Assembly: GCA_026391215.1 (NCBI GenBank)
Contig: JAPLDX010000063.1
Span: 1 to 16,639 of the forward strand
DNA: 16,639 bases
Direction of reading: 5' to 3'
Origin: Bacteroidia bacterium
GTDB taxonomy: Bacteria; Bacteroidota; Bacteroidia; Bacteroidales; VadinHA17
In this document: piece after piece, positions 757 to 16,639 of the stretch
Layout of the letters: each line of letters opens with the position of its first letter
How positions within the stretch are numbered: position 1 is the stretch's first letter
Program-made: the position numbers and the translations under genes
Notes under the pieces: generated by a model
The model's database searches: none
The model's input: the letters and a program-made list of their open reading frames with translations, nothing else
What the model was told of the DNA's origin: nothing

Positions 757-1641
757 CTATCTGTTAGCTCTGATCAGTCCTCTCCTCAACCAGGGAGAGG
801 ATATTTTTTTATCATAATAATGAATCATATAACCTTTTGACGGAGTCACTGTGAATCTGTTTTTTTCAAGGAGCGAAGTAAATTCCTTTTCGTCATTATT
901 TTTATGATAGGTGCATAAGGCTATTTTAAGGCTGCTTTTTCCCGCGAGCAATTCCGAAGCGCCATTAAGTACTTTCCGCTCATTCCCATCAACATCAATT
1001 TTCAGGAATGTGATATCTTTCCGCGCACTGATCAGTGAGTCAAGGGTTATATGTCTATCATCATCAAAGTCAGCCACATACTTACTTATTATCTCTACCT
1101 TATCCTTCCACGGTGCAAAAGTGGCTTCAAGAGCCCGGATCCATTCACTGTCATATTCAACCAGGTATATTTTCTTTACCTTTTCAATTACTGATAATGA
1201 AAAATTTCCTTCTGCAGCACCAATATCTGCTATTACGTCACCGGCACCGATAGTGAAATCTTCTGAAAGATAACTGTGAGGACTCCGGAGATCCTGCTCT
1301 CTTAACAGGTCAGAACAAGCCAGTTGTATCCTTCTGGTTGTCCACCTTTTTCTGAAATAGAGTCTTTTTCCATCATGAATGACGTATGGCATTCCATTTG
1401 AAGGATCTGATAAAACTTCAATCTTTTCGGGTGAATATTCAAAAGAAAAGGGATAAGGGAAGATAGTAACAGGATTTACCTCAAGATATTTTAAAACACC
1501 TCTTTGTTCAGCATTGACCTCATTGCCAGGTAGTTTTGAATAGTAATCAAGGATCTTTTTCCGGAGACTCTTTTTAAGAATTCGGGTCCTGATTGGTTTC
1601 GGAACCAACACACGATATATCTGAAAAAGAAAAGGATTCAT
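757..1641 (-). CDS. FkbM-family SAM-dependent methyltransferase
   Basis: SAM-binding motif IADIGAAEGNFS, TLD followed by FLKIDVDGNE (FkbM KIDVEG-like), and IALCTYH. Starts 6 bp after the kbl stop. Confidence 0.75.
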   Translation of the reverse strand: MNPFLFQIYRVLVPKPIRTRILKKSLRKKILDYYSKLPGNEVNAEQRGVLKYLEVNPVTIFPYPFSFEYSPEKIEVLSDPSNGMPYVIHDGKRLYFRKRWTTRRIQLACSDLLREQDLRSPHSYLSEDFTIGAGDVIADIGAAEGNFSLSVIEKVKKIYLVEYDSEWIRALEATFAPWKDKVEIISKYVADFDDDRHITLDSLISARKDITFLKIDVDGNERKVLNGASELLAGKSSLKIALCTYHKNNDEKEFTSLLEKNRFTVTPSKGYMIHYYDKKISSPWLRRGLIRANR

Positions 1642-1647
1642 TTTTAA

Positions 1648-2838
1648 TTATTTCAGGACACGCAATTCTTTCCCGATCTTTTCAAAAGCTTTTATAGCCT
1701 TATCGAGATGTTCTTTCTCATGTGCGGCAGAAAGCTGAACGCGGATCCGTGCCTCTCCTTTAGGGACGACAGGATAATAAAATCCGATAACATAAATTCC
1801 CTCACGCAGGAGCCTGGCTGCAAATTCCTGTGATAGTTTTGCATCATAAAGCATAACTGCGCAAATTGCAGATTTGGTTGGTTTGATATCAAATCCCAGA
1901 TTGGTCATCCGGCTGATAAAATACTCAGCATTCCTGTGAAGCTTATCCTGAAGAACATTTGTCCCGATCATCATATCCACCATTTTAATACCTGCAGCAG
2001 CAACCATGGGGGGAATTGAATTTGAAAATAGATAAGGACGTGATCTTTGACGGAGAAGTTCAATGATCTCTTTCTTCCCTGTGGTAAAACCTCCTATTGC
2101 ACCGCCAAATGCTTTGCCGAGAGTTCCTGTTATTATTTCAACCTGTCCCATGATATTAAAAAGTTCGGTTACTCCTCTGCCGGATTCACCAACCACTCCT
2201 GCTGAATGGGATTCATCAACCATTACCATGGCATTATAGAGGTTTGCCAGTTCAACGATTTTTTTCAGAGGTGCAACATTCCCGTCCATGGAAAAGACTC
2301 CATCGGTGACTATAAGGCGGAACCTTTGTTCCTGGGCCAGCTGCAGCTGAGCTTCAAGATCTTCCATATCGGCATTCTCGTACCTGTAGCGATGGGCTTT
2401 GCAGAGCCTCACCCCGTCAATTATGGAAGCATGGTTCAACGCATCGGATATTATAGCATCTTCACTTGTAAGAAGAGGTTCAAACACACCTCCATTGGCA
2501 TCAAAGCATGCTGCATACAGGATCGTATCTTCAGTACTGAAAAAATTAGCAATTTTCCTTTCTAACTTCTTATGAAGATCGGTTGTTCCACAGATGAAGC
2601 GTACCGATGACATCCCATAGCCATAATCCCCAAGAGCTTTTCCTGCTGCTTCGATAAGATCCGGATTATTTGAAAGGCCCAGATAATTATTAGCACAGAA
2701 ATTCAGGACTTTCTGCCCGGTATCAAGCTCAATTTCAGCTCCCTGGGGGGATATAATAATTCGTTCTTTTTTATTAAGGCCAGCCTCTTCTATTTCCTTA
2801 AGCTGGTTTGCAATATGATTCTGAAAAGCAGTATACAT
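1648..2838 (-). CDS. kbl: Glycine C-acetyltransferase (2-amino-3-ketobutyrate CoA ligase), canonical-looking copy
   Basis: NFCANNYLGLS, GMSSVRFICGT, CFDANGG, DALNHASIIDG, DGVFSMDG, VDESHS, PLP lysine in TGTLGKAFGGA, RQRSRPYLFSNS, YPVVPKGEARIRVQ. Confidence 0.93.
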   Translation of the reverse strand: MYTAFQNHIANQLKEIEEAGLNKKERIIISPQGAEIELDTGQKVLNFCANNYLGLSNNPDLIEAAGKALGDYGYGMSSVRFICGTTDLHKKLERKIANFFSTEDTILYAACFDANGGVFEPLLTSEDAIISDALNHASIIDGVRLCKAHRYRYENADMEDLEAQLQLAQEQRFRLIVTDGVFSMDGNVAPLKKIVELANLYNAMVMVDESHSAGVVGESGRGVTELFNIMGQVEIITGTLGKAFGGAIGGFTTGKKEIIELLRQRSRPYLFSNSIPPMVAAAGIKMVDMMIGTNVLQDKLHRNAEYFISRMTNLGFDIKPTKSAICAVMLYDAKLSQEFAARLLREGIYVIGFYYPVVPKGEARIRVQLSAAHEKEHLDKAIKAFEKIGKELRVLK

Positions 2839-2853
2839 AATAATTACTAAAGC

Positions 2854-4101
2854 TTATATGCCGTATTTTGCTATGATCTCTTCTTTTGTCAAGCCCAGAA
2901 TTTCATATTTTTTTCCTACTTTAATAAAAGCATTTAATGCCTTTTCAAGATGATGGATCTCATGCCCGGCGGAGATCTGTGTTCTTATCCTTGCCTGGCC
3001 ATTGGTAACCACAGGGAAAAAAAATCCGATAGCATAGATACCTTCATTGTAGAGATCCTTTGAAAAATCCTGGGATAGTTTTGCATTGAACAACATGACA
3101 GGAACAATAGGGCTGTTTCCTTCCTTTAAAATAAATCCTGCTTCTGTCAATCCCTTTCTCCACCAGGCAGCATTCTTTTCCAGTTTATCCCGCCTTTCGG
3201 TGCTTGAAGAAAGGATATCGAAAACCCTCAGTACCCCTGCTACGATTACCGGTGATATTGTATTTGAAAACAGATATGGACGGGCTTTCTGCCTGCACAT
3301 CTGGACTATTTCCTTCCTGCCGGATACACATCCGCCGGAAGCTCCGCCAAGTGCTTTGCCAAATGTGGTGGTAATAATATCAATTTTACCAACTACATTG
3401 AAATGTTCATGTGTTCCGCGCCCGGTTTTTCCAATAAATCCTGAGGAATGAGAATCATCAACAAGGATCATGGCATCATATTTTTCACAAAGCTGTACCA
3501 TTTCATCAAGCTTTGCCAGATCACCATCCATTGAGAATACTCCGTCAGTTATTACCAGCTTGATTCTTTTATCGGCATGAAGCTGGAGCTTCTCTTCAAG
3601 GTGTTCCATATTGGAATGTTTGAAAGTGTCATGTTGAGCGCTGCATAACCTCATTCCATCGATTATGGACGCATGAACAAGTCTGTCGGATATCATTATA
3701 TCTTCGCTTGTCAGGATAGCTTCAAAGACTCCCGCATTTGCGTCCATGCATGAAGGGAAAAGAATTGTGTCTTCAGTTCCCAGAAACTCTGTGACCTTGT
3801 TTTCAAGCTCCCTGTGAATATCCTGGGTGCCGCAGATGAAGCGAACCGACGACATTCCGTAGCCTCTTTTTTCAAGCCCTTCATGAGCAGCTTTAAGCAC
3901 ATCAGGATGACTTGATAATCCCAGATAGTTATTGGAGCACATATTAATTACTTTCTTGATACTGGCTCCCGAAGGAAATTCGACTTCGATATCAGCTGCC
4001 TGGGGAGAGTGGATAAACCTCTCTTCTTTATAAATACCGGCATTCTGGATCTCTGACAATTGATTCCTGTACAAGTCTTTGACTCTATTGCTGTAGCTCA
4101 T
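2854..4101 (-). CDS. Second Kbl-like PLP-dependent alpha-oxoamine synthase (divergent paralogue)
   Basis: MCSNNYLGLS, GMSSVRFICGTQD, DRLVHASIIDG, DGVFSMDG, VDDSHS, PLP lysine in TTTFGKALGGASGG, RPYLFSNT, ARIRTQIS. Has a short C-terminal extension relative to the other copy. Confidence 0.85.
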   Translation of the reverse strand: MSYSNRVKDLYRNQLSEIQNAGIYKEERFIHSPQAADIEVEFPSGASIKKVINMCSNNYLGLSSHPDVLKAAHEGLEKRGYGMSSVRFICGTQDIHRELENKVTEFLGTEDTILFPSCMDANAGVFEAILTSEDIMISDRLVHASIIDGMRLCSAQHDTFKHSNMEHLEEKLQLHADKRIKLVITDGVFSMDGDLAKLDEMVQLCEKYDAMILVDDSHSSGFIGKTGRGTHEHFNVVGKIDIITTTFGKALGGASGGCVSGRKEIVQMCRQKARPYLFSNTISPVIVAGVLRVFDILSSSTERRDKLEKNAAWWRKGLTEAGFILKEGNSPIVPVMLFNAKLSQDFSKDLYNEGIYAIGFFFPVVTNGQARIRTQISAGHEIHHLEKALNAFIKVGKKYEILGLTKEEIIAKYGI

Positions 4102-4109
4102 AATTAACG

Positions 4110-4355
4110 TTATTTATTTATATACTTATTCACAAGTTCAACGATCTTATTTACTGAATCAAATGCTTCAGGTGTAGCTTTTTCCGGCGGTATTTTAATC
4201 TTGAATTTATTTTCAAGAAAAACCAGCAGGGAAACCATCGAAAAGGAATCAACATATCCGCTGGAGATCAGAGGTGAGTCATAAGTAATTTCTTCACCTT
4301 CATCAAGGTATTCACTTATGACATATTTCCGGATGAGTTCTTTAATATCTTCCAT
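4110..4355 (-). CDS. Stand-alone acyl/aminoacyl carrier protein (phosphopantetheine attachment site)
   Basis: 81 aa with the motif SGYVDSFSMVSL (GxDS serine) followed by LENKFKIKIP...EAFDSVNKI, a carrier-protein pattern. 29 bp from the ligase and 8 bp from the Kbl paralogue. Confidence 0.88.
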   Translation of the reverse strand: MEDIKELIRKYVISEYLDEGEEITYDSPLISSGYVDSFSMVSLLVFLENKFKIKIPPEKATPEAFDSVNKIVELVNKYINK

Positions 4356-4384
4356 AATTATAAAGTAGTTAAGATTTATCTGAA

Positions 4385-6088
4385 TCAGTCATTTTCGAGA
4401 GTGGAGATATCTCCGATTTCTTCACCCCATTCCTTTGCATGCAGTAATCTTCTCAATATTTTCCCGCTCCTGGTTTTCGGGAGCTTATCCATAAATTCGA
4501 CAGCCTGGGGCATTGCAAGGGGAGATAATTTTTTTCTTATGAAATTCATTATCTCAAGTTCAAGATCAGGACCGGGACTGAATCCCGGTTTGAGGGTAAT
4601 AAATGCTTTAACCACTTCCATGTTTATAACATCGGGTTTTGCAACAACAGCTGATTCTCCGACTGCCGGATGTTCCAGCAGTGCTGATTCCACTTCAAAC
4701 GGGCTAACCAGATGTCCCCCGGTATTGATTACATCATCATCACGGCCAACAAACCAGAAGTATCCTTCATTGTCAATACTCGACCGGTCTCCTGAAAGAT
4801 ACCAGCCATTGACAAACTTTTCCTTATATTTCTCTTCATTGTTCCAGTAATTCCTCATCATTGACGGCCATCCCGGACGGAACGCGATAAGTCCTATTTT
4901 CCCCGGCTCTATAATTGGTTCATATTTTTTCGGATCAAGCACCACACCTGTAATTCCCGGGAAAGGTTTACCCATAGATCCCGGTTTTACTTTCATACCG
5001 GGGAAATTGGTGATCATTATACAACCTGTCTCAGTCTGCCAGAATGTATCATGGAATGGTTTTCCAAACATTTTTATGGACCATATTACTGCTTCAGAAT
5101 TCAATGGTTCTCCTACACTTGCAAGATGACGGAGGCTTGAAAGGTTAAATTCACGGACAATTTCATCACCTGCTCTCATAAGCGATCTTATTGCTGTCGG
5201 AGCCGAATACCATACAGTAATTTTATTATCATAGATGAATTTATACCATGTCTGAGCTGAAAATCCCGCATCAAGAACGCACTGAGTAATCCCAAGGCTC
5301 CATGGTCCTATTATGCCGTAGGAGGTGCCTGTCACCCATCCAGGGTCAGCAGTGCACCAGTATATGTCATCTTCCTGCAGATCGAGAACCCATTTGGTTG
5401 TAAGATATTGTGCGATAATTGAGTAATGAACATGCTTTACTCCTTTTGGCTGTCCGGTTGTCCCGGATGTATAATGCAATACAGAAGGCGATTCAGCAGT
5501 GGCAGGAAAAATTTCCAGATTCTCAACAGGCGCAGACTCATGTAAGCTGAAAGCAATTTCCCTGCTTTCCAGTTTTTTTGTAATTACATGATCAACAATG
5601 ATTATAAATTCAAGATGAGGGAGCCTGTCCCTAATCTTCCTGACCTTTGATAAATGTTTACTCTGCGTTATGATTGCCCTTGTCTGTGCATTTTCAAGCC
5701 TGATGAAAAGAGATTCTTCCCCAAAAGCAGAAAAAAGCGGCTGTACGATAGCTCCTATTTTAAGGCCACCAAGAAACGATAAATATAATTCCGGGATCCT
5801 GTCCATGAACAGGCACACCCTGTCTTCACTTTTAATCCCCAGATTACGAAGGAAATTACCGATAACATTTCCTGCAATACGGATATCGTTAAATGTATAT
5901 CTCTTTTTGATCCCTCCGAAACCTTCATAAATGAGAGCAGTTTTACCGGCTTTTCCTTTTAAACAGATCCGGTCAGAACAGTACCATCCGATGTTTAATA
6001 CATTTCCATCCCTGTACTCTAGTTCCTTTTCGGCAATGGACCAATTAAAATCTTTGATCCTTTCCTCATAAAGGCCAAAATTTGACAT
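4385..6088 (-). CDS. acsA: AMP-forming short-chain acyl (acetate)-CoA/carrier ligase, AcsA-like
   Basis: ANL-family motifs YTSGTTGQPKG, WCTADPGWVTG, YSAPTAIR, SVGEPLN, DTFWQTETG, FVGRDDDVI and PKTRSGKILRR. Confidence 0.88.
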   Translation of the reverse strand: MSNFGLYEERIKDFNWSIAEKELEYRDGNVLNIGWYCSDRICLKGKAGKTALIYEGFGGIKKRYTFNDIRIAGNVIGNFLRNLGIKSEDRVCLFMDRIPELYLSFLGGLKIGAIVQPLFSAFGEESLFIRLENAQTRAIITQSKHLSKVRKIRDRLPHLEFIIIVDHVITKKLESREIAFSLHESAPVENLEIFPATAESPSVLHYTSGTTGQPKGVKHVHYSIIAQYLTTKWVLDLQEDDIYWCTADPGWVTGTSYGIIGPWSLGITQCVLDAGFSAQTWYKFIYDNKITVWYSAPTAIRSLMRAGDEIVREFNLSSLRHLASVGEPLNSEAVIWSIKMFGKPFHDTFWQTETGCIMITNFPGMKVKPGSMGKPFPGITGVVLDPKKYEPIIEPGKIGLIAFRPGWPSMMRNYWNNEEKYKEKFVNGWYLSGDRSSIDNEGYFWFVGRDDDVINTGGHLVSPFEVESALLEHPAVGESAVVAKPDVINMEVVKAFITLKPGFSPGPDLELEIMNFIRKKLSPLAMPQAVEFMDKLPKTRSGKILRRLLHAKEWGEEIGDISTLEND

Positions 6089-6120
6089 AAATTAATTGCA
6101 TTAGTAATTTACCTTGCCTT

Positions 6121-6128
6121 CCAAGATA
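6121..6128 (-). promoter_or_regulatory. Possible Bacteroidota -7 promoter element for the acsA-ACP-kbl-kbl-fkbM block
   Basis: Minus strand reads TATCTTGG, one mismatch from TAnnTTTG, in AT-rich context about 33 bp upstream of the ligase ATG. Confidence 0.35.
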
Positions 6129-6179
6129 TACAATTTTTTACAGTTAAAACATCTCTTATCTGATTTTATTCTGAAGGGA

Positions 6180-6251
6180 TAAAGTCCATAAAGTCTGTAA
6201 AGTCTGTAAAGTCTGTAAAGTCTGTAAAGTCTGTAAAGTTTGTAAAGTTTG
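6180..6251. repeat. 9-bp tandem repeat, 8 units, consensus TAAAGTCTG
   Basis: TAAAGTCCA x1, TAAAGTCTG x5, TAAAGTTTG x2, read directly. There are no spacers. Confidence 0.97.
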
Positions 6252-6275
6252 TATGGTTGATAAGATTTATATGGA

Positions 6276-6499
6276 TTAATGTAATGTTTTAATCAGGCCG
6301 GAAATTATTTTTGAGATCTCTTTGGATGAATTGAGGAGAAATTTGTATTCTTCTTCACTTAAATATTTTAGTTCAGAAGCAAGATAAAGCATAGATCTTA
6401 CCTCTCCACATGACCCTTTAGCGATAAACAAAAAATTCTCTGGGTCATAACTTTAGCTTTTTGCCATGATAAAATATCTTCAAACTGATCAATCTTCAT
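6276..6499 (-). pseudogene. Four-helix-bundle protein (23S rRNA IVS protein / bAvd-like, TIGR02436-type), internally deleted and frameshifted
   Basis: ATG at 6499 gives MKIDQFEDILSWQKAKVMTQRIF (family N-terminus F-E-D-L-x-x-W-Q-K-A). A different frame from about 6434 gives FLFIAKGSCGEVRSMLYLASELKYLSEEEYKFLLNSSKEISKIISGLIKTLH* (family FLxIAxGSxxE motif). The central DQxxRAxxSIxxNIAEG segment is absent and the first frame stops at 6398. Confidence 0.85.
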
Positions 6500-6520
6500 A
6501 GAATCTGCAATTTTAAATTC

Positions 6521-6557
6521 GACTTTACGGACTTTGGACTTTAAGGACTTTCGACTT
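6521..6557. repeat. Degenerate GACTTT tandem array (5 cores spaced 9,7,9,7 bp), the reverse complement of the 6180-6251 array
   Basis: GACTTT cores at 6521, 6530, 6537 and 6546, plus GACTT at 6553. The array ends 2 bp from the tdh stop codon. Confidence 0.9.
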
Positions 6558-6559
6558 AT

Positions 6560-7594
6560 TTATTCCCAATTAAGGATGACTTTTCCGCAGTTCCCTTCTT
6601 CCATTATATCGAAACCCTTCTGAAAATCGTCAATATGAAAACGGTGCGTGATGACCGGATTCAGATCAATGCCTCCCAGTATCATCTGTTCCATTTTGTA
6701 CCAGGTCTCCCACATCTCTCTTCCATATATTCCTTTAAGTGTAATTGCTTTGAAGATAATGTCACTCCATGGAACTTCAAAGTTCGAAGGAAGAATTCCG
6801 AGCAATGATATACTTGAACCGTTATACATATTGGTTATCATTTCGATAAATGCTTTTGGAGAGCCTGACATTTCAAGTCCCACATCAAATCCTCTCATCC
6901 CCAGCTTCTTAACTGCATCAGAGATCTTTTCTCCCTTTGAAGGATTGATTGTAAGTGTTGCTCCCATTTTTTTCGCAATATCAAGACGGTAATCGCTAAG
7001 ATCGCTGGCTACAATAAATCTTGCACCTGAGAATCTGGCAATTGCAATAGCCATGCTTCCGATTAGTCCTGTTCCTGTTATCAGAACATCTTCTCCAAGG
7101 AGAGGGAAGGAAAGCGCAGTATGAGTCGCATTACCGAACGGATCCATTATAGCTGCCCATTCATCGGGGATCCTGTGGTCGAGTAGTACAATATTTGCTG
7201 CAGGTATTTTAACATATTCGGCAAAAGAGCCATCAATATTTACACCAATCCCGACGGAATTTTCGCAAACATGCTCTTTTCCGCGGCGGCAATTCCTGCA
7301 ATGACCGCAGGCCAGATGACCTTCACCGGTGACACGGTCACCTGCTTTAAGATTAGCTACACCGGCACCGGTTTTTTCAATATAACCCATATATTCATGA
7401 CCAATCACCATAGGAGTCTTTATGGTTTTCTGTGACCAGGCATCCCATTTATAAATATGAAGATCTGTACCGCAAATGGCTGATTTCTTTACTTTTACGA
7501 TTACGTCATTCAATCCCGGTTCGGGGACAGGAACTTCTTCCATCCATAAGCCTCTTTCCGGCCGGGCTTTCACCAGGGCTTTCATTTTCTTCAT
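6560..7594 (-). CDS. tdh: L-threonine 3-dehydrogenase (Zn-dependent MDR family)
   Basis: MKALVK, AICGTDLHIYKWDAWSQKTI, GHEY, GEGHLACGHCRNCRRGKEHVC, DPFGNATHTAL, GIYGREMWETWYKM, GKVILNW. The start is placed at 7594 (or 7585) rather than 7639 because a promoter motif lies at 7612-7619. Confidence 0.93.
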   Translation of the reverse strand: MKKMKALVKARPERGLWMEEVPVPEPGLNDVIVKVKKSAICGTDLHIYKWDAWSQKTIKTPMVIGHEYMGYIEKTGAGVANLKAGDRVTGEGHLACGHCRNCRRGKEHVCENSVGIGVNIDGSFAEYVKIPAANIVLLDHRIPDEWAAIMDPFGNATHTALSFPLLGEDVLITGTGLIGSMAIAIARFSGARFIVASDLSDYRLDIAKKMGATLTINPSKGEKISDAVKKLGMRGFDVGLEMSGSPKAFIEMITNMYNGSSISLLGILPSNFEVPWSDIIFKAITLKGIYGREMWETWYKMEQMILGGIDLNPVITHRFHIDDFQKGFDIMEEGNCGKVILNWE

Positions 7595-7619: not shown

Positions 7620-7682
7620 ATACAATTATGCTGTATCAAAGTCTGACAAATGCCATACTATTAATATATATCACGGTTTACA

Positions 7683-9919: not shown

Positions 9920-10642
9920 ATGGATGCCTGGTTGTCCAGAACGGAATTACTACTTGGTAAGGAGAAACTTACAAAGCTTAAATCCTCAAATGTTCTTATC
10001 GTTGGACTGGGCGGGGTGGGTGCATTTGCTGCGGAAATGATCTGCAGGGCAGGTATCGGTTCAATGACAGTTGCAGATGGCGACACTGTACATGCTTCCA
10101 ACCGGAACAGGCAGCTTCTAGCTCTTAAAAGCACAGAGGATATTGCAAAGACAGAAATAATGCGTTCCAGGCTTTTGGATATAAATCCCGGTCTTAATCT
10201 TACGGTTATAAATGAATATATCAGGGATGAAAGGATGATCGAAATACTGGATGCCGGATTTGATTATGTCGTTGATGCTATTGATACTCTCTCTCCCAAA
10301 GTATTCCTTATATATCACTCTCTGAAGAGAAAATACCCTGTAGTAAGCTCGATGGGTTCCGGTGGGAAATATGATCCGCTGAGAATAGATATTAAAGATA
10401 TTTCTGAAACCACGGATTGTCCTCTGGCCAGGATACTCCGAAAAAGGCTTCACCGGCTGGGTGTAAGAGAAGGATTTACCGCAGTATATTCCCCTGAGGC
10501 ACCAGACAAAGCAAAAGTTATCCCGGTTTCAGGTGAACCTAATAAAGCCTCAGTTGTCGGGACGATCTCCTACATGCCAGCAGCATTCGGGATCGCCTGT
10601 GCATCAGTGGTTATCAGGGATCTTGCAGAAATTTCAAGATAG
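9920..10642 (+). CDS. tcdA: tRNA threonylcarbamoyladenosine dehydratase (ThiF/E1-like)
   Basis: SRTELLLG, VGLGGVG, DGDTVHASNRNRQ, DYVVDAID, SSMGSGGKYDP, CPLARILRKRL, GTISYMPAAFG. Confidence 0.9.
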   Translation: MDAWLSRTELLLGKEKLTKLKSSNVLIVGLGGVGAFAAEMICRAGIGSMTVADGDTVHASNRNRQLLALKSTEDIAKTEIMRSRLLDINPGLNLTVINEYIRDERMIEILDAGFDYVVDAIDTLSPKVFLIYHSLKRKYPVVSSMGSGGKYDPLRIDIKDISETTDCPLARILRKRLHRLGVREGFTAVYSPEAPDKAKVIPVSGEPNKASVVGTISYMPAAFGIACASVVIRDLAEISR

Positions 10643-10737
10643 GGAACCTGCCTTGTCTCAGCAATTTGAAGTATTAAAAACCATTTTGATTCAACTTGTA
10701 AATCAGATCTTTATATTTTATTACAAAACTTATTTAC

Positions 10738-10745
10738 TATATTTG
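10738..10745 (+). promoter_or_regulatory. Bacteroidota -7 element for the leader ORF / metal-efflux operon
   Basis: TATATTTG 12 bp upstream of ATG 10758, in an AT-rich intergenic stretch. Confidence 0.55.
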
Positions 10746-10757
10746 TGTTTTATTGTA

Positions 10758-11150
10758 ATGAGCAAGATTATTAATAAGATAGGTGTCTGTTTCTTGTGGC
10801 TGGCTGGTTTGGTCCTGTGTGCCCATCTTATCATTCCTCATGACCATCATATATCTGATGCATCTGTAATTGAGGATGAGAATTGTCCTGCATCAGAGAG
10901 AGAATCCAGCCATCACCAAGGTTTGCCTGACCATTGTCATGCTTTTAATGATCTGGTCTCAGAAAAGTTCAGGGTTTATCATATTCTTCCTGATATTCAA
11001 TATAACCTGAATGCATTCATCAGACCGTCTGATGAAAATGCATCCGATTTACCTGTTTACTGTGTAGGAATTATTGACCTGCAAAAGCCGTTTATCGATT
11101 CTTATGCTCTTGAATTATCTCTGTTAAGAGCACCTCCCTCCCTGGCTTAA
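10758..11150 (+). CDS. Small His/Cys-rich protein with N-terminal hydrophobic helix and C-terminal RAPP motif (130 aa); candidate leader/arrest peptide
   Basis: MSKIINKIGVCFLWLAGLVLCAHLIIPHDHH...SSHHQGLPDHCHAFN...LLRAPPSLA*. The start is moved from 10533 to ATG 10758 because the upstream extension overlaps tcdA and the promoter motif. Confidence 0.75.
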   Translation: MSKIINKIGVCFLWLAGLVLCAHLIIPHDHHISDASVIEDENCPASERESSHHQGLPDHCHAFNDLVSEKFRVYHILPDIQYNLNAFIRPSDENASDLPVYCVGIIDLQKPFIDSYALELSLLRAPPSLA

Positions 11151-11253: not shown

Positions 11254-14200
11254 ATGATAGACCGGATAATCTCCTTTTCAATCAGGAATAAGTTCATTAT
11301 CGGATTATTCATTTTGGCAATAATAGGATGGGGAACCTACTCATTATCAAGACTGCCAATTGATGCCATACCGGATATTACAAATAACCAGGTGCAGGTA
11401 ATTTCTCTGGCACCTTCATTAGCGGTTCAGGAAGTAGAGAGCTTTATTACAGCTCCAATCGAAGTTTCTGTGGCCAATATCCCGGATATTATTGAACTCC
11501 GCTCTATCTCAAGGCTGGGATTATCTGTTGTTACTGTAGTGTTTGAAGATGGAGTGGATGTATATTGGGCAAGACAGCAGCTTAGTGAGCGTTTGAAAGA
11601 GGCTGAAGAGTCCATTCCGTCTGGTTTGGCACAAATATCTCTGGCTCCTGTCTCTTCAGGATTAGGAGAAATATTTCAATACCGGCTGGCGGTGGAGAAA
11701 GGACATGAAGAAGAGTTTAATCCAATGGAGCTCAGAACAATCCAGGATTGGATTGTGCGACGCGAAATGCTTGGGACGACCGGTGTTGCAGATATAAACA
11801 GCTATGGCGGATTTGTCAAGCAATACGAAATAGCTGTGAATCCTGAAAGACTCAGAGGCATGAACTTATCATTAACGGATATTTTCAATGCCCTGGAAAG
11901 GAACAATGAAAATACGGGCAGCGCTTATATTGATAAAAATCCGACTGCTTATTTTATAAGGGGTATCGGATTGGTTAAATCTCTTGAGGACATTGAAAAG
12001 ATTGTCGTTAAGACCACTGATTCTGGAGTTCCTGTACTGGTCAGGGATATTGCAACAGTGCAGCTTGGCAGTGCAACCAGGTATGGTGCTTTTGTTGTTG
12101 ATACCGCAGAAGCTGTCGGAGGTGTTGTAATGATGCTGAAAGGCGCAAATGCACATCAGGTTATTGATAATGTGGAAAAACGAATTGAGTCAATTCAAAA
12201 ATCGTTGCCGGAAGAAGTCAGGATTGAGCCTTTTCTTAATCGCTCTGATCTGGTGGGGCGTGCTATTGGAACTGTTTCAAGAAACCTGATTGAAGGTGCA
12301 TTAATTGTAGTTTTCATCCTTGTTTTATTACTGGGAAATATGCGGGCCGGGCTTATTGTAGCATCGGTCATCCCGCTTTCAATGCTTTTTGCTGTTTCAA
12401 TGATGAATCTTTTTGGAGTGTCTGGCAACCTGATGAGCCTGGGAGCCATTGACTTCGGATTGATAGTTGACGGTGCCGTAATCATTGTTGAAAGTGTTGT
12501 TCACAGGATTTCCATGAGCGAACATCACCATCCTGGAGTTTTGAGGCTGAACCAGGAGCAAATGGATGAAAATGTTCTTGATTCAGCAAAACGGATGATG
12601 AACTCAGCAACCTTCGGACAGATAATTATATTGATTGTATACCTGCCAATAATGGCACTTGTAGGTATTGAAGGGAAAATGTTCCGGCCAATGGCACAGG
12701 TAGTTACTTTTGCACTGATCGGGGCTGCAATATTATCACTTACATACGTGCCCATGGCCTCTGCCTTATTCTTAAGCAAGAGAACAAGTCATAAAACAAA
12801 TTTTTCTGACCGGTTATTGGATTGGATCCGTAAGATTTTCAATCCTGTAATTGTTTTTGCACTTAAAAGAAAACTTCTTGTTACGGTTTCTGCAATAGTT
12901 CTGTTCTTATTTAGCTTGTTCTTATTCGGCCGTCTGGGAGGTGAATTTATTCCTCAACTCGAAGAAGGCGACCTTGCATCAAGTGTTATAACTCTTCAGG
13001 GAGGATCGTTGACTCACACAGTTGATAATGTCATTAAAGCAAACAAAATTTTACTTGAAAATTTCCCGGAGATAAAACATGCAGTTTGTAAAATAGGAGC
13101 TGGAGAGATTCCAACAGATCCTACTCCCATGGAAACTGGTGATTATGTCATTACCCTTAAAGATAAAAGTGAATGGGTTTCAGCTTCTAATCGCGAAGAA
13201 CTTGTAAGTAAAATGGAAGAAAGTTTAATCCCTCTTGCAGGCGTAAAATTTGAGTTCCAACAACCTATACAGATGAGGTTTAATGAACTGATGACTGGTT
13301 CTAAACAAGATATTGCCATTAAAATATTTGGAGATGATTTAGCTGTATTATCTGAAAAAGCTGCTGATGTCGAAAAAGTTATTCAGACAATTGCCGGAGT
13401 TCAGGATATTAATGTAGAGAAAGTAACTGGTCTTGCACAGATACAGGTAGAATACAACCGGGATCGTCTGGCACAATATGGTCTTTCTGTAGAAAATATA
13501 AATCAGGTTTTGCGTGCAGCTTTTGCCGGCAGCCAGGCAGGCGTGGTTTATGATGAAGAAAAGAGGTTTGGACTGGTAGTTCGTCTCGACAAAGATTACA
13601 GACAGAGCCTTGATGATGTAAAGAACCTTACTGTAGCTCTTGCTGACGGACATCAGATACCTTTTGATCAGGTAGCTGACATTTCAATTAAATCAGGTCC
13701 CGCTCAGGTTTCGCGGGAAAATACAAAACGAAGGATAACAATAGGATTCAATGTCCGTAACCGTGATATAAAAAGTGTTATAAATGATGTTGAAGAGCAG
13801 CTTGACCAGAAAATTCAATTACCTGCCGGATATTACATTTCTTACGGTGGCCAGTTCAGGAACCTTGAGGCAGCTCAGAAAAGACTTTCCATAGCAGTTC
13901 CTGTTGCACTCCTGTTGATTTTCGTCTTGTTATATTTCACATTTCATTCTGCGAAACAATCTCTCCTGATCTTTACCGCAGTTCCAATGTCGGCAATCGG
14001 CGGTATTTTTGCCCTCTGGATACGGGGAATGAACTTTTCAATATCTGCAGGTGTCGGTTTTATTGCATTATTTGGGGTTGCTGTTCTGAATGGAATTGTG
14101 CTCATTGCAGAGTTTAACCGACTCGAAAAGGAAGGAGTTGCAGATATAACAGAGCGTGTGCTTAAAGGACTAAAGATAAGGTTGCGTCCCGTAATTATGA

Positions 14201-15645
14201 CAGCAGCCGTTGCATCATTTGGGTTTCTGCCTATGGCATTATCAACATCGGCAGGTGCTGAGGTACAGAAACCATTGGCTACCGTCGTGATAGGAGGACT
14301 TATCACCGCAACTATTCTTACATTGGTAATTCTTCCGGTATTTTATATCTTTTTTTCCTCTACAAGCTTCAGATTAAGATTAAAGGGCAGATCGGCCAGA
14401 AGAATGACAGCTTTTTTATTGTTTGCTGTGACAACATCAGCATTTAATATAATAAACGGACAGCAAGCAAAGGTCATTAATCTGCATGACGCAATCCAGA
14501 TAGCCCTGGATAGTAATCTGTCCGTTAAGTCCGCAGCATTATCCATAGATGTGCAAAGGACTCTCAAAGGTGCTTCCCTTGACCTTCCCAAGACAATTAT
14601 CGACGGTCAGTACGGCCAGTTCAATTCATACACAAACGATAATAGTATTGCAATTTCTCAATCTTTTGCTTTCCCTTCAGTCTATGTGAATCGTTCAAGA
14701 CTGGCAAATGCAAATGTTAAAAGCAGTGAATTTCAATATATGGCCACTCAACTTGAATTGGCAACGCAGGTTAAACAGGTTTACTGGCAATTTGTATTCT
14801 TGTCTTCAAAACAAAAATTACTGGTATATCAGGACAGCCTTTACTCAGGATTTTTGCGAGCGGCGGAATTAAGGGCAAAAACCGGAGAAACGAACCGGCT
14901 GGAAATGATCACTGCCCGTTCTCAAAGTCTTGAAATAAAAAATCAGCTGTACCAGGTAACTTCTGATATTGCAATATACAGTCGTAAATTTTTGGTTTTG
15001 CTGAATAGTAAATCGGTTTTGGTACCATCAGACAAGGAAATTCATCGCATTGATCTTACACCGAATTCTGACAGCATCCAGGTTATTCAGAATCCATACC
15101 TGGATTACGTAAAGCAGCAAGTTGAAGTATCTCAGATTGAGAAAAAACTGGAACAAAGCCAGATGTTGCCTGATTTAAATATTGGTTATTTCAGTCAGAC
15201 AATTATCGGGAACCAGGATGTAAACGGGATATCCCAAAATTTCGGGAAGGGAGACCGATTTACAGGTGTTCAGGCTGGTATATCCGTTCCATTGTGGTTT
15301 GTCCCATATACATCAAGGGCGAAGGCTGCAAAAATATCTGAGAATATTGCCCGGACAAATGCTGAAAATTATACTAAATCCCTTGCAGGCAATTACCAGT
15401 CACTGCTTGATGAGTACAATAAGTACTCTTCAAGTGTTGATTATTATGAAAAGCAGGCTGTTCCTGAAGCTGACCTGATAATTGACCAGGCAATCCGAAG
15501 TTATAAAGCCGGGGCACTTGACTACCTTGATTATATCCTTACATTAAACAGAGCATTGGCAATCAGGCAGAACTATCTTGATACACTTAACAGTTTAAAC
15601 CAGACTATTGTTTCAATTGAATACATCACAGGTAAAATATTTTAA
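11254..15645 (+). CDS. czcA: CusA/CzcA-family heavy-metal efflux RND permease fused to a C-terminal TolC-like outer-membrane factor domain
   Basis: [77 protein letters not shown]. After about aa 1040 there is a second hydrophobic stretch and an OMF-like region ([40 protein letters not shown]). Confidence 0.93.
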   Translation: [1463 protein letters not shown]

Positions 15646-15657
15646 ATTAATGTAATC

Positions 15658-16639
15658 ATGAAAGAAGTTAATTATAAAGTGTCATTGATCATTTTCGGAG
15701 TCATTTTCTCTGTAATATCTTGTTCTAAAGGCACTAAGCCTGTAGAAGAAACCGCCGGGACTGAAGTTCTCCCGGAAGATGTTGTCGAATTACGGGAAGA
15801 TCAGATCAAACTTGCCGGTATTCAGACCGGTTCAGTTGAGATCCGGTCAGTCAGTAACACTCTTAAAGTCAATGGAATTGTTTCTGTTGCACCACAGAAT
15901 CAGGCAACTGTTTGTATGCCTTTGGGCGGTTTTGTCAAGAGCACTTTCCTTCTTCCGGGAGAAGCTGTCAGTAAAGGGCAGACACTTGCTGTTATCGAAA
16001 ATCAGGATTTCATTGATATCCAGCAGAGTTATCTGGAGGCAAAAAACAGACTTGTATTTGCTGAGGCTGAATTTAAACGTCATACAGATCTGTATAAGGA
16101 TGAAGTATATTCTGAGCAAAATTTACAACAGGTGACTGTTGAGTATAAGAACCTTAAAGCACTGGTAAAATCCCTGGAACAAAAGCTGGTTCTTATAGGA
16201 ATTGATCCTCATCAGCTCAATGAGGATAACATCAGCAATACAGCTGACCTCGTATCCCCCATTAAAGGTTATCTGAAAGCTGTCAATGTAAATATCGGGA
16301 AATATGTTTCATCAACTGAAATTCTTTTCGAAATTGTAAACAGTGATAAGCTATTCCTTGATCTGACATTGTTCGAAAAGGATGCAAATAAGGTTACCAT
16401 TGGCCAGAAAATAAAGTTCTTCATTAACAATGAAACTGAAGCACATGAAGCATTTATCTCGCAGACAGGAAAATCAGTTAGTGACGACAAGACTTTCAGA
16501 GTTTTTGGAACTGTCATAAGTTCATGCAAAAACCTATTGCCCGGAATGTATGTTAATGCATTAATTGAAGAATCAGATATAAAAGTAGCAGCACTTCCTT
16601 CAGAGGCAATAGTAAGTTTCGATGATAAGGATTATATAT
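15658..16639 (+). CDS. RND efflux periplasmic adaptor (CzcB/CusB-like lipoprotein), 3' truncated; missing from the ORF track
   Basis: ATG 15658 gives MKEVNYKVSLIIFGVIFSVISC (lipobox)...DQIKLAGIQTG...PLGGFVKS..LLPGEAVSKGQTLA...SPIKGYL..VNVNIGKYV...LLPGMYVNA...LPSEAIV. The frame is open to the window end. Confidence 0.92.
   Translation, partial: MKEVNYKVSLIIFGVIFSVISCSKGTKPVEETAGTEVLPEDVVELREDQIKLAGIQTGSVEIRSVSNTLKVNGIVSVAPQNQATVCMPLGGFVKSTFLLPGEAVSKGQTLAVIENQDFIDIQQSYLEAKNRLVFAEAEFKRHTDLYKDEVYSEQNLQQVTVEYKNLKALVKSLEQKLVLIGIDPHQLNEDNISNTADLVSPIKGYLKAVNVNIGKYVSSTEILFEIVNSDKLFLDLTLFEKDANKVTIGQKIKFFINNETEAHEAFISQTGKSVSDDKTFRVFGTVISSCKNLLPGMYVNALIEESDIKVAALPSEAIVSFDDKDYI

Follow-up and report, generated by a model that had tools for sequence, protein, structure and literature searches.

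The window analysed here is the 16,639-bp stretch from position 1 to 16,639 of contig JAPLDX010000063.1 (GenBank assembly GCA_026391215.1), from a sediment-derived Bacteroidia bacterium of the VadinHA17 lineage (Bacteroidales). Its subject is a row of six genes in which an acetate-type ligase, a small carrier protein and a paralogue of the threonine-pathway enzyme Kbl lie side by side. Assignments were judged against the curated cut-offs of the NCBIfam/TIGRFAM equivalog models and of PF00550. Read along the minus strand, on which all six genes lie, the row opens with tdh (6560-7594), encoding a Zn-dependent L-threonine 3-dehydrogenase (NF003808, 525.5 bits with a cut-off of 380; TIGR00692, 460.3 bits with a cut-off of 458.35); its reading frame extends open to a TTG at 7639, and the Tdh profile begins at residue 19. 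There follow the AcsA-type ligase of 567 amino acids (LIG; 4385-6088; PRK04319 acetate-CoA (coenzyme A) ligase, 746.1 bits, cut-off 729), the carrier protein of 81 amino acids (4110-4355; PF00550, 25.8 bits, cut-off 20.8) and a Kbl-like alpha-oxoamine synthase of 415 amino acids, hereafter AOS415 (2854-4101; TIGR01822, 562.4 bits, cut-off 493; NF005394, 567.5 bits, cut-off 460). The row closes with kbl itself, encoding 396 amino acids (1648-2838; 668.1 and 626.3 bits in the same two models), and an FkbM-like methyltransferase gene (757-1641; TIGR01444, 39.4 bits, cut-off 37.7). From the coordinates, the gaps between ligase, carrier, AOS415, kbl and FkbM-like gene are 29, 8, 15 and 6 bp, exactly the orientation and spacing that the initial annotation of this DNA had reported. 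The tight spacing is confined to these five genes; tdh stands apart by 471 bp (6089-6559). This gap holds a broken gene of the four-helix-bundle (23S rRNA intervening sequence protein) family (6276-6499, minus strand), reduced to reading frames of 33 and 51 amino acids in different frames. The broken gene is flanked by a tandem repeat with a 9-bp unit in 8.2 copies (6180-6253; Tandem Repeats Finder), and a second small array of 16-bp units (6518-6557) lies between it and tdh. No Rfam family matched anywhere in the window.

Comparison within the genus divided the row into two parts. The reference set comprised 19 genomes of the same genus without the full cassette, namely 18 without a ligase orthologue and one (G018) in which ligase, carrier and a gene of the MBOAT family are present, but at a different site. 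In 17 of the 19 we found a single Kbl, 79-85% identical to the one in the window; in these cassette-less relatives kbl comes directly after tdh, and the locus is flanked by gltX and nrdJ. The window kbl product also matches the Escherichia coli Kbl structure 1fc4 with an E value of 7e-147. Because tdh is directly beside kbl at this same site in relatives without the cassette, we read the locus as a resident tdh-kbl(-fkbM) operon into which a ligase-carrier-AOS415 cassette has been inserted between tdh and kbl. The four-helix-bundle remnant probably marks the insertion junction beside tdh; one cassette-bearing relative, L027 (loci are given by our own labels), has an intact gene of 113 amino acids at the same position (TIGR02436, 121 bits; PF05635, 122 bits). 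By its distribution, kbl is the resident housekeeping CoA-type glycine C-acetyltransferase of the genus, and the role that the initial annotation gave this second Kbl within a special system falls away.

The methyltransferase likewise left the system. The same FkbM-like gene lies behind kbl in 8 of the 17 cassette-less loci and was never met outside this genus's locus, while two cassette-bearing relatives (L025, L029) lack it and L027 has a methyltransferase of another family in its place. Since it trails kbl in genomes without the cassette and is missing from some with it, we place it outside the cassette as a neighbour of kbl, and its earlier listing as a member of the system was dropped. 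Of the 24 further genomes searched in this genus, 6 encode a ligase orthologue with at least 74% identity.

Across the order, ligase orthologues at least 69% identical occurred in 32 of 401 sampled Bacteroidales genomes, spread over many families. From these genomes we drew 28 ligase-centred loci with 1.5-kb flanks. The carrier gene followed the ligase in 24 of them and AOS415 (76-85% identical) followed the carrier in 22, and in 23 of the 28 the ligase was preceded by a gene for an AcpS-type phosphopantetheinyl transferase (PF01648, 73 bits). The common order in Bacteroidales is a divergent dehydrogenase gene of the SDR type, then kbl, AcpS, ligase, carrier and AOS415; the SDR gene encodes the GalE-like type of L-threonine dehydrogenase (E value of 1e-126 to TDH 2yy7). 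Three loci of one genus (L051, L056, L057) have AcpS and ligase without a nearby carrier gene. In a further arrangement, seen at L094 (positions 12216-16607) and 11 similar loci of one Bacteroidales lineage labelled Rikenellaceae/Bacteroidales, ilvD, ilvB and ilvN come after the tdh-ligase-carrier-AOS415-kbl block and share its strand; threonine is the precursor of isoleucine.

Scanning 185,579 species genomes with AOS415 returned at least 581 relatives. The synteny counts that follow refer to the best 80 of these, all of which are at least 80% identical and are labelled Bacteroidales, Aminicenantes/Acidobacteriota, Zixibacteria, Cloacimonadota, Ignavibacteriales, Delongbacteria, GN15 and, in some cases, 'Clostridia' bins. 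A carrier gene lay directly upstream of AOS415 in all 80 loci, often 8-30 bp away. Seventy loci reached far enough for a ligase gene to be visible, and 68 of them had it upstream; the two misses look like split alignments. At least 5 kb of upstream sequence was available for 62 loci; of these, 47 had a Tdh gene within about 9 kb (31 of the Zn type, 16 of the SDR type), 30 had AcpS, 48 a second alpha-oxoamine synthase and 5 a SatP/AceTr acetate channel. Directly behind AOS415, SatP/AceTr genes were seen in L065 and L067, and SatP-family genes in five further loci bring the total to seven. In the other phyla the operon often reads SDR-type tdh, AcpS, ligase, carrier, AOS415, without a second Kbl nearby, and in four of five such genomes AOS415 is the sole gene genome-wide that passes the Kbl cut-off. 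Where cassette-bearing genomes of the Aminicenantes type have no Tdh gene near the cassette, an SDR-type Tdh is encoded elsewhere in the genome (5 of 5).

Such recurrence in many genomes takes the arrangement far beyond chance, and since the linked Tdh enzymes belong to two unrelated types, Zn-dependent alcohol dehydrogenase and SDR, the link to Tdh points to function rather than inheritance. Ligase, carrier and AOS415 thus appear to form a horizontally spread three-gene cassette, with AcpS as a fourth gene in most other lineages. The core of the initial annotation, a ligase, a carrier and one Kbl paralogue as a conserved unit repeatedly tied to Tdh, is borne out by these counts, and the gene order that it had proposed to look for across Bacteroidota and other anaerobes is kept in many genomes and, by label, in several phyla. 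With the carrier as query against longer proteins, the search for fused forms gave four single-member proteins of 170-442 amino acids and no recognisable ligase-carrier or carrier-AOS fusion, which is weak evidence; in 17 related loci Rfam revealed no riboswitch, the only match being one tRNA.

Several neighbours of the cassette recur in particular lineages. In three loci labelled Zixibacteria (L140, positions 1835-5212; L154; L158), a sigma-54 activator with TPR repeats and a lone protein with a bacterial microcompartment (BMC) shell domain lie directly upstream of an operon of SDR-type tdh, AcpS, ligase, carrier and AOS415. Downstream in L140 is a Pat-like protein of 895 amino acids that combines ADP-forming CoA-ligase domains with GNAT; the Aminicenantes locus L145 has an unannotated member of the same cluster of open reading frames. 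Six Aminicenantes-type loci (L120, L122, L133, L136, L156, L160) encode a classical short-chain dehydrogenase (adh_short) of 240-290 amino acids close by, either alongside the SDR-type Tdh or in its place.

The nearest solved relative of the ligase is an Acs of 572 amino acids, 9g79 (E value of 4e-170), and long-chain ligase models fell far below their cut-offs. Residues V252, T253, V325 and W350 of the LIG protein align to V310, T311, V386 and W414 of Salmonella enterica Acs, of which we take the first three to be acyl-pocket residues, and each of the four is unchanged throughout the 84 orthologues compared. Trp414 limits the Acs pocket to acetate, according to the available text of PMC10455477. 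On these four residues the ligase pocket is predicted to be acetate-sized, in agreement with the short acyl substrate that had been proposed from the sequence of this window. The same source, in its available text, names three highly conserved arginines of Acs for CoA binding and the thioester step, Arg191, Arg526 and Arg584, with Arg526 needed for the thioester step (PMC10455477). The ligase lacks the complete set. At the Arg526-equivalent position, which is Arg in 9g79, it has leucine (L460), as do 84 of 84 orthologues; the Arg191 equivalent, in a poorly aligned loop, is basic in only 1 of 84 (Lys), and 75 of 84 have an Arg three positions further along. The catalytic Lys609 equivalent is kept. 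With leucine at the Arg526 site the ligase departs from Acs at a residue of the second half-reaction, which may point to a different thiol acceptor but does not prove one.

The carrier protein bears a DltC-like motif, G-x-V-D-S-F-S-M-V-S-L, in which VDSFSMVSL is invariant. In an alignment of 46 carrier sequences D36 and S37 are invariant, and phosphopantetheine is presumably attached at Ser37 (bases 4245-4247). The protein scored below every NCBIfam cut-off for acyl carrier proteins (ACPs) and DltC (NF003464, 35.5 against 68; TIGR01688, 26.8 against 52.35). Its best NCBIfam match, the OlsHI ornithine-lipid ACP, reached 59 with a cut-off of 130, and membership of that family was rejected; the available text of PMC12493201 places the OlsHI protein in a planctomycete GH3-type pathway.

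In the loci of four relatives (L028, L029, L031, L060) the ligase-carrier pair is accompanied by a DltB-like MBOAT gene; among named families DltB comes closest (TIGR04091), but the 181 bits do not reach the cut-off of 375. In L028 and L029, which belong to the same genus, the MBOAT gene sits between tdh and the ligase; the stretch with this arrangement is 8200-11020 in L028 and 8306-10788 in L031. In L028, L029 and L031 the MBOAT gene is followed by a protein of 311-318 amino acids with an N-terminal membrane anchor and, as read by eye, motifs of the SGNH/DltD kind (Gly-Asp/Ser-Ser ... Asp-x-x-His); this protein has no relative in the PDB by sequence, and beside the MBOAT gene of L060 we identified no DltD-like gene. 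Neither MBOAT nor DltD is encoded in the window, and the only MBOAT of the genome, 31% identical, lies elsewhere. L031 and L060 have no AOS415, so acetyl-carrier there can only come from a ligase working forward. A setting with an MBOAT would make sense only with an acyl-carrier donor, and these two loci are the best argument, read from gene content, that the ligase may load the carrier. The MBOAT loci as a group look like a putative Dlt-type envelope acylation that uses an acetate-type ligase.

AOS415 is 53% identical to the window's own kbl product and aligns over its full length with solved Kbl structures (7v58, E value of 8e-135; 1fc4, 1e-129). Compared with Kbl 7v58, the motifs HASIIDG, DDSH and FGKA(L)GGASGG are kept, and K249, H143, D215 and H218 are invariant in 46 de-duplicated AOS415 sequences, whose mean column identity is 89%; we take Lys249 to be the pyridoxal phosphate (PLP) lysine, and the roles of the individual motifs are likewise presumed. 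The protein scored below the models for SPT (331, 275 and 234 bits with cut-offs of 640, 500 and 670) and BioF (358 with a cut-off of 426), and also far below the ALAS cut-off. Features of its own set it apart from Kbl: a conserved tail of 14 residues at the C terminus, absent from Kbl, and 20 positions fixed differently in the two groups. In the tree the AOS415 sequences came together as one clade with a long stem branch (44 rows, SH-aLRT 100) and with short internal branches that mix phyla, which fits horizontal spread under strong constraint. Two loci labelled Delongbacteria (L148, position 1964; L157, position 10316) have a tandem second copy, 61-63% identical, directly downstream of AOS415; in the tree these copies are sister to the AOS415 clade. 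From its sequence and setting we propose that AOS415 may be a glycine C-acetyltransferase acting with an acetyl-S-carrier protein. A complex prediction for the AOS415 dimer with the carrier, with alignments supplied for both, scored 0.13 against a mark of 0.32, which counts neither for nor against the pairing.

The cassette would then be a carrier-protein-dependent copy of the Tdh/Kbl pathway. In the proposed scheme, the ligase would adenylate acetate and transfer the acetyl group to the phosphopantetheine thiol of the carrier, giving acetyl-S-ACP; AOS415 would interconvert acetyl-S-ACP plus glycine with 2-amino-3-ketobutyrate plus HS-ACP; and Tdh would interconvert 2-amino-3-ketobutyrate plus NADH with L-threonine plus NAD+. 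A private thioester pool, and not acetyl-CoA, would link threonine and glycine with free acetate and ATP. Either ATP hydrolysis or threonine cleavage could set the acetyl-thioester/thiol ratio of that pool without regard to the CoA pool, a rationale that would hold for both directions. That acetyl-ACP is the intermediate shared by ligase and AOS415, and linked to Tdh, we consider somewhat more probable than the contrary. As to direction, we lean slightly towards the acetate-consuming one, in which acetate, ATP, glycine and NADH would yield threonine or at least 2-amino-3-ketobutyrate, because the ligase would work forward in the MBOAT loci, because SatP-family genes named for acetate uptake lie behind the cassette in seven loci, because a Pat-like acetyltransferase stands near the cassette in L140 (the L145 member of its cluster being unannotated), and because ackA, present in 15 of 15 cassette-bearing genomes, makes a second acetate-forming ATP route unnecessary. 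The Pat-like neighbour hints at a possible Acs-style control of an ATP-consuming enzyme. The wider view, that several phyla of anaerobes share a so far unrecognised module of central metabolism with acetyl-S-carrier as its thioester currency, built from an Acs-derived ligase, a private DltC-like carrier and a dedicated Kbl subfamily and in some genomes also feeding a DltB-like MBOAT (acetyl-Dlt), stands in our estimate just short of an even chance.

Set against known systems, the cassette resembles each in part. With the Tdh/Kbl pathway as encoded by E. coli tdh-kbl it shares the two enzyme families, the intermediate and an adjacent tdh. The classical pathway, however, needs only CoA, whereas AOS415 is preceded by a dedicated carrier and an acetate-activating ligase; the classical kbl is also present in the window. 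The AcsA-type acetyl-CoA synthetases (PRK04319; 9g79) have the same Val/Thr/Val/Trp pocket and the Lys609 and Arg584 equivalents. The ligase differs from them by its leucine in place of Arg526, by the attached carrier gene and by the AcpS gene usually found ahead of it, and the thiol acceptor proposed for it is the carrier instead of CoA. As in the Dlt system (DltA/DltC/DltB/DltD), a ligase would load a small dedicated carrier, one that has the VDSFSMVSL motif and weak DltC matches, and an MBOAT lies beside the ligase-carrier pair in four relatives, with a DltD-like protein in three; unlike in Dlt, the ligase is an acetate-type Acs homologue and not a D-alanine adenylating enzyme, the acceptor in the window would be a PLP enzyme, and the carrier stays under the DltC cut-off (35.5 against 68). 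Sphingolipid ligase-ACP-SPT modules and the pimeloyl-ACP-dependent BioF also have a dedicated carrier feeding an alpha-oxoamine synthase from adjacent genes. There the acyl chains are long, whereas a C2 acyl group and glycine are predicted for AOS415, which scores below the SPT and BioF cut-offs and whose product would not be decarboxylated if the enzyme is Kbl-like. We know of no precedent for an Acs-family enzyme that loads acetate on a phosphopantetheinyl carrier or for a Kbl that works with acyl-ACP, and our literature search turned up none; full-text searching, with subscription journals and supplements out of reach, found no description of the cassette.

Three other accounts of the locus have to be weighed. 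The same chemistry might serve catabolism: Tdh would oxidise threonine, AOS415 with holo-carrier would give glycine and acetyl-ACP, and either the ligase in reverse would turn acetyl-ACP, AMP and pyrophosphate (PPi) into acetate and ATP or the acetyl group would pass to the DltB-like MBOAT, the private carrier pool freeing the acetyl-thioester/thiol ratio from the CoA pool. Kbl favours thiolytic cleavage of the keto acid, and the cassette sits within a catabolic tdh-kbl operon, where a parallel CoA-type Kbl would be natural. The labelled hosts are uncultured and come from sediment, wetland and similar metagenomes; most cassette-bearing genomes have thrC and need no new threonine route; and the BMC shell-domain protein and sigma-54 activator upstream of the Zixibacteria cassettes fit as well. 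An ATP route from acetyl-CoA already exists in the 15 of 15 genomes with ackA, however, and where the pair has an MBOAT but no AOS415 (L031, L060) the ligase must load acetate forward. The SatP-family genes behind the cassette in seven loci, which NCBIfam describes as acetate uptake transporters, and the Pat-like acetyltransferase near the L140 cassette, with the L145 member of its cluster unannotated, also speak for acetate as substrate rather than product. We regard a catabolic cassette as possible, though rather unlikely.

Alternatively, nothing new may be present: an ordinary acetyl-CoA synthetase would stand beside a second, CoA-dependent Kbl isozyme, and the carrier, with AcpS, would serve some other acceptor, as in envelope acylation, and just travel along with the ligase. 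Both the ligase and AOS415 do pass CoA-type equivalog cut-offs, the Arg584 equivalent is present in 84 of 84 ligases, and the source genome has no other Acs-like ligase at E <1e-50; the ligase-carrier pair also occurs beside an MBOAT without AOS415, and AcpS-ligase without a nearby carrier gene in L051, L056 and L057. What makes this account improbable to us is the carrier immediately upstream of AOS415 in 80 of 80 loci, together with the position of AOS415 as the only Kbl partner of a co-operonic Tdh in four of five other-phylum genomes, its placement in a clade of its own, set off from Kbl by 20 fixed differences and a distinct C-terminal tail, and the loss of the Acs Arg526 from the ligase. 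Less probable still, and in our view quite unlikely, is a decarboxylating AOS415 that would make an aminoketone from acetyl-ACP, either aminoacetone or one derived from another amino acid, for use in signalling, as a compound of the pyrazine type or as the precursor of a cofactor, with the dehydrogenase reducing this product and not making threonine. To our knowledge all alpha-oxoamine synthases except Kbl decarboxylate, and lipid and natural-product pathways typically have trios of ligase, carrier and alpha-oxoamine synthase. Six Aminicenantes loci have an additional short-chain dehydrogenase close to the cassette, and in the window's genus kbl is followed by a methyltransferase that belongs to one or the other of two unrelated families. 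That methyltransferase, however, also occurs without the cassette, and we saw no recurrence of further genes for tailoring or export. AOS415 clears the Kbl cut-off by a wide margin and stays well short of the cut-offs for BioF, SPT and ALAS, both types of linked dehydrogenase are genuine threonine dehydrogenases, and identity of at least 80% across phyla would be unusual in secondary metabolism.

Several observations weigh against the reading that we favour, acetyl-ACP as the intermediate shared by ligase and AOS415 and linked to Tdh. On the side of the enzymes, the ligase passes the acetate-CoA ligase equivalog cut-off and keeps, in 84 of 84 orthologues, the equivalent of Arg584, which binds the CoA 3'-phosphate, so acetyl-CoA may be all that it makes; AOS415 exceeds the cut-off of the CoA-type Kbl model, and none of the 20 positions fixed differently between AOS415 and Kbl could be tied to CoA or carrier docking. 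In the window's genus AcpS is missing from the cluster, and the single PF01648 match of the genome lies elsewhere. On the side of the pathway, the co-operonic CoA-type Kbl would undo a biosynthetic AOS415 reaction, and since thrC is present in the source genome and most cassette-bearing genomes, and ackA in 15 of 15 tested, there is no apparent need for a new route to threonine or for a new ATP-yielding route to acetate. The counts from the best 80 loci, which are the query's nearest relatives and in many cases come from one genus, are not independent; most of these loci are metagenome bins, and some phylum labels may be binning errors, a worry that contigs of 236 kb to 1.6 Mb under several of the loci count against. 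Moreover, the evidence for the system is comparative throughout, every putative step being read from gene order and residues.

The distribution of thrC and ackA also bears on two simpler roles. Within Bacteroidales, thrC occurred in 24 of 32 cassette-bearing and 27 of 40 cassette-free genomes, and among relatives of a Zixibacteria carrier of the cassette in 5 of 14 and 13 of 27, respectively. The cassette as a replacement of aspartate-derived threonine synthesis found no support, as there is no anticorrelation with thrC, and neither did the cassette as a replacement of Pta/AckA, with ackA in 15 of 15 cassette-bearing genomes and pta itself not searched for. The initial annotation had proposed to check whether cassette-bearing genomes lack thrB/thrC or pta/ackA, and for thrC and ackA this check failed on the same counts. 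Taken as a whole, its interpretation stood in the carrier-linked Kbl paralogue, through conserved synteny, but not in the membership of FkbM or in the predicted loss of thrC or ackA.

Elsewhere in the window, on the plus strand, lies a reading frame of 1463 amino acids (11254-15645) in which residues 1-1035 match a CusA/CzcA-type RND permease (1158 bits) and residues 1076-1434 form a TolC-like outer-membrane factor region (37.7 bits). The frame is either a fusion of inner-membrane pump and outer-membrane channel or a pair of genes with no stop in between. A further frame of 205 amino acids (10533-11150, plus strand) has no NCBIfam match, overlaps the end of a tcdA-like gene by about 110 bp and may be no gene.

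The cassette genes usually go by the names 'glycine C-acetyltransferase', 'acetate-CoA ligase' and 'acyl carrier protein'. If our reading is correct, the textbook Tdh/Kbl pathway would have a widespread carrier-dependent twin that automatic annotation has hidden. This twin would provide an ATP-driven route from acetate and glycine to threonine or, reversed, a PPi-dependent, ATP-yielding fermentation of threonine. An ATP-driven condensation through a private thioester pool would be of interest for engineered glycine-based carbon assimilation, and identity of at least 80% across phyla makes the cassette proteins easy to express and test. For the organisms themselves, the finding would bear on how uncultured anaerobes of sediments and digesters, labelled Bacteroidales, Aminicenantes, Zixibacteria and Cloacimonadota, handle acetate, glycine and threonine.

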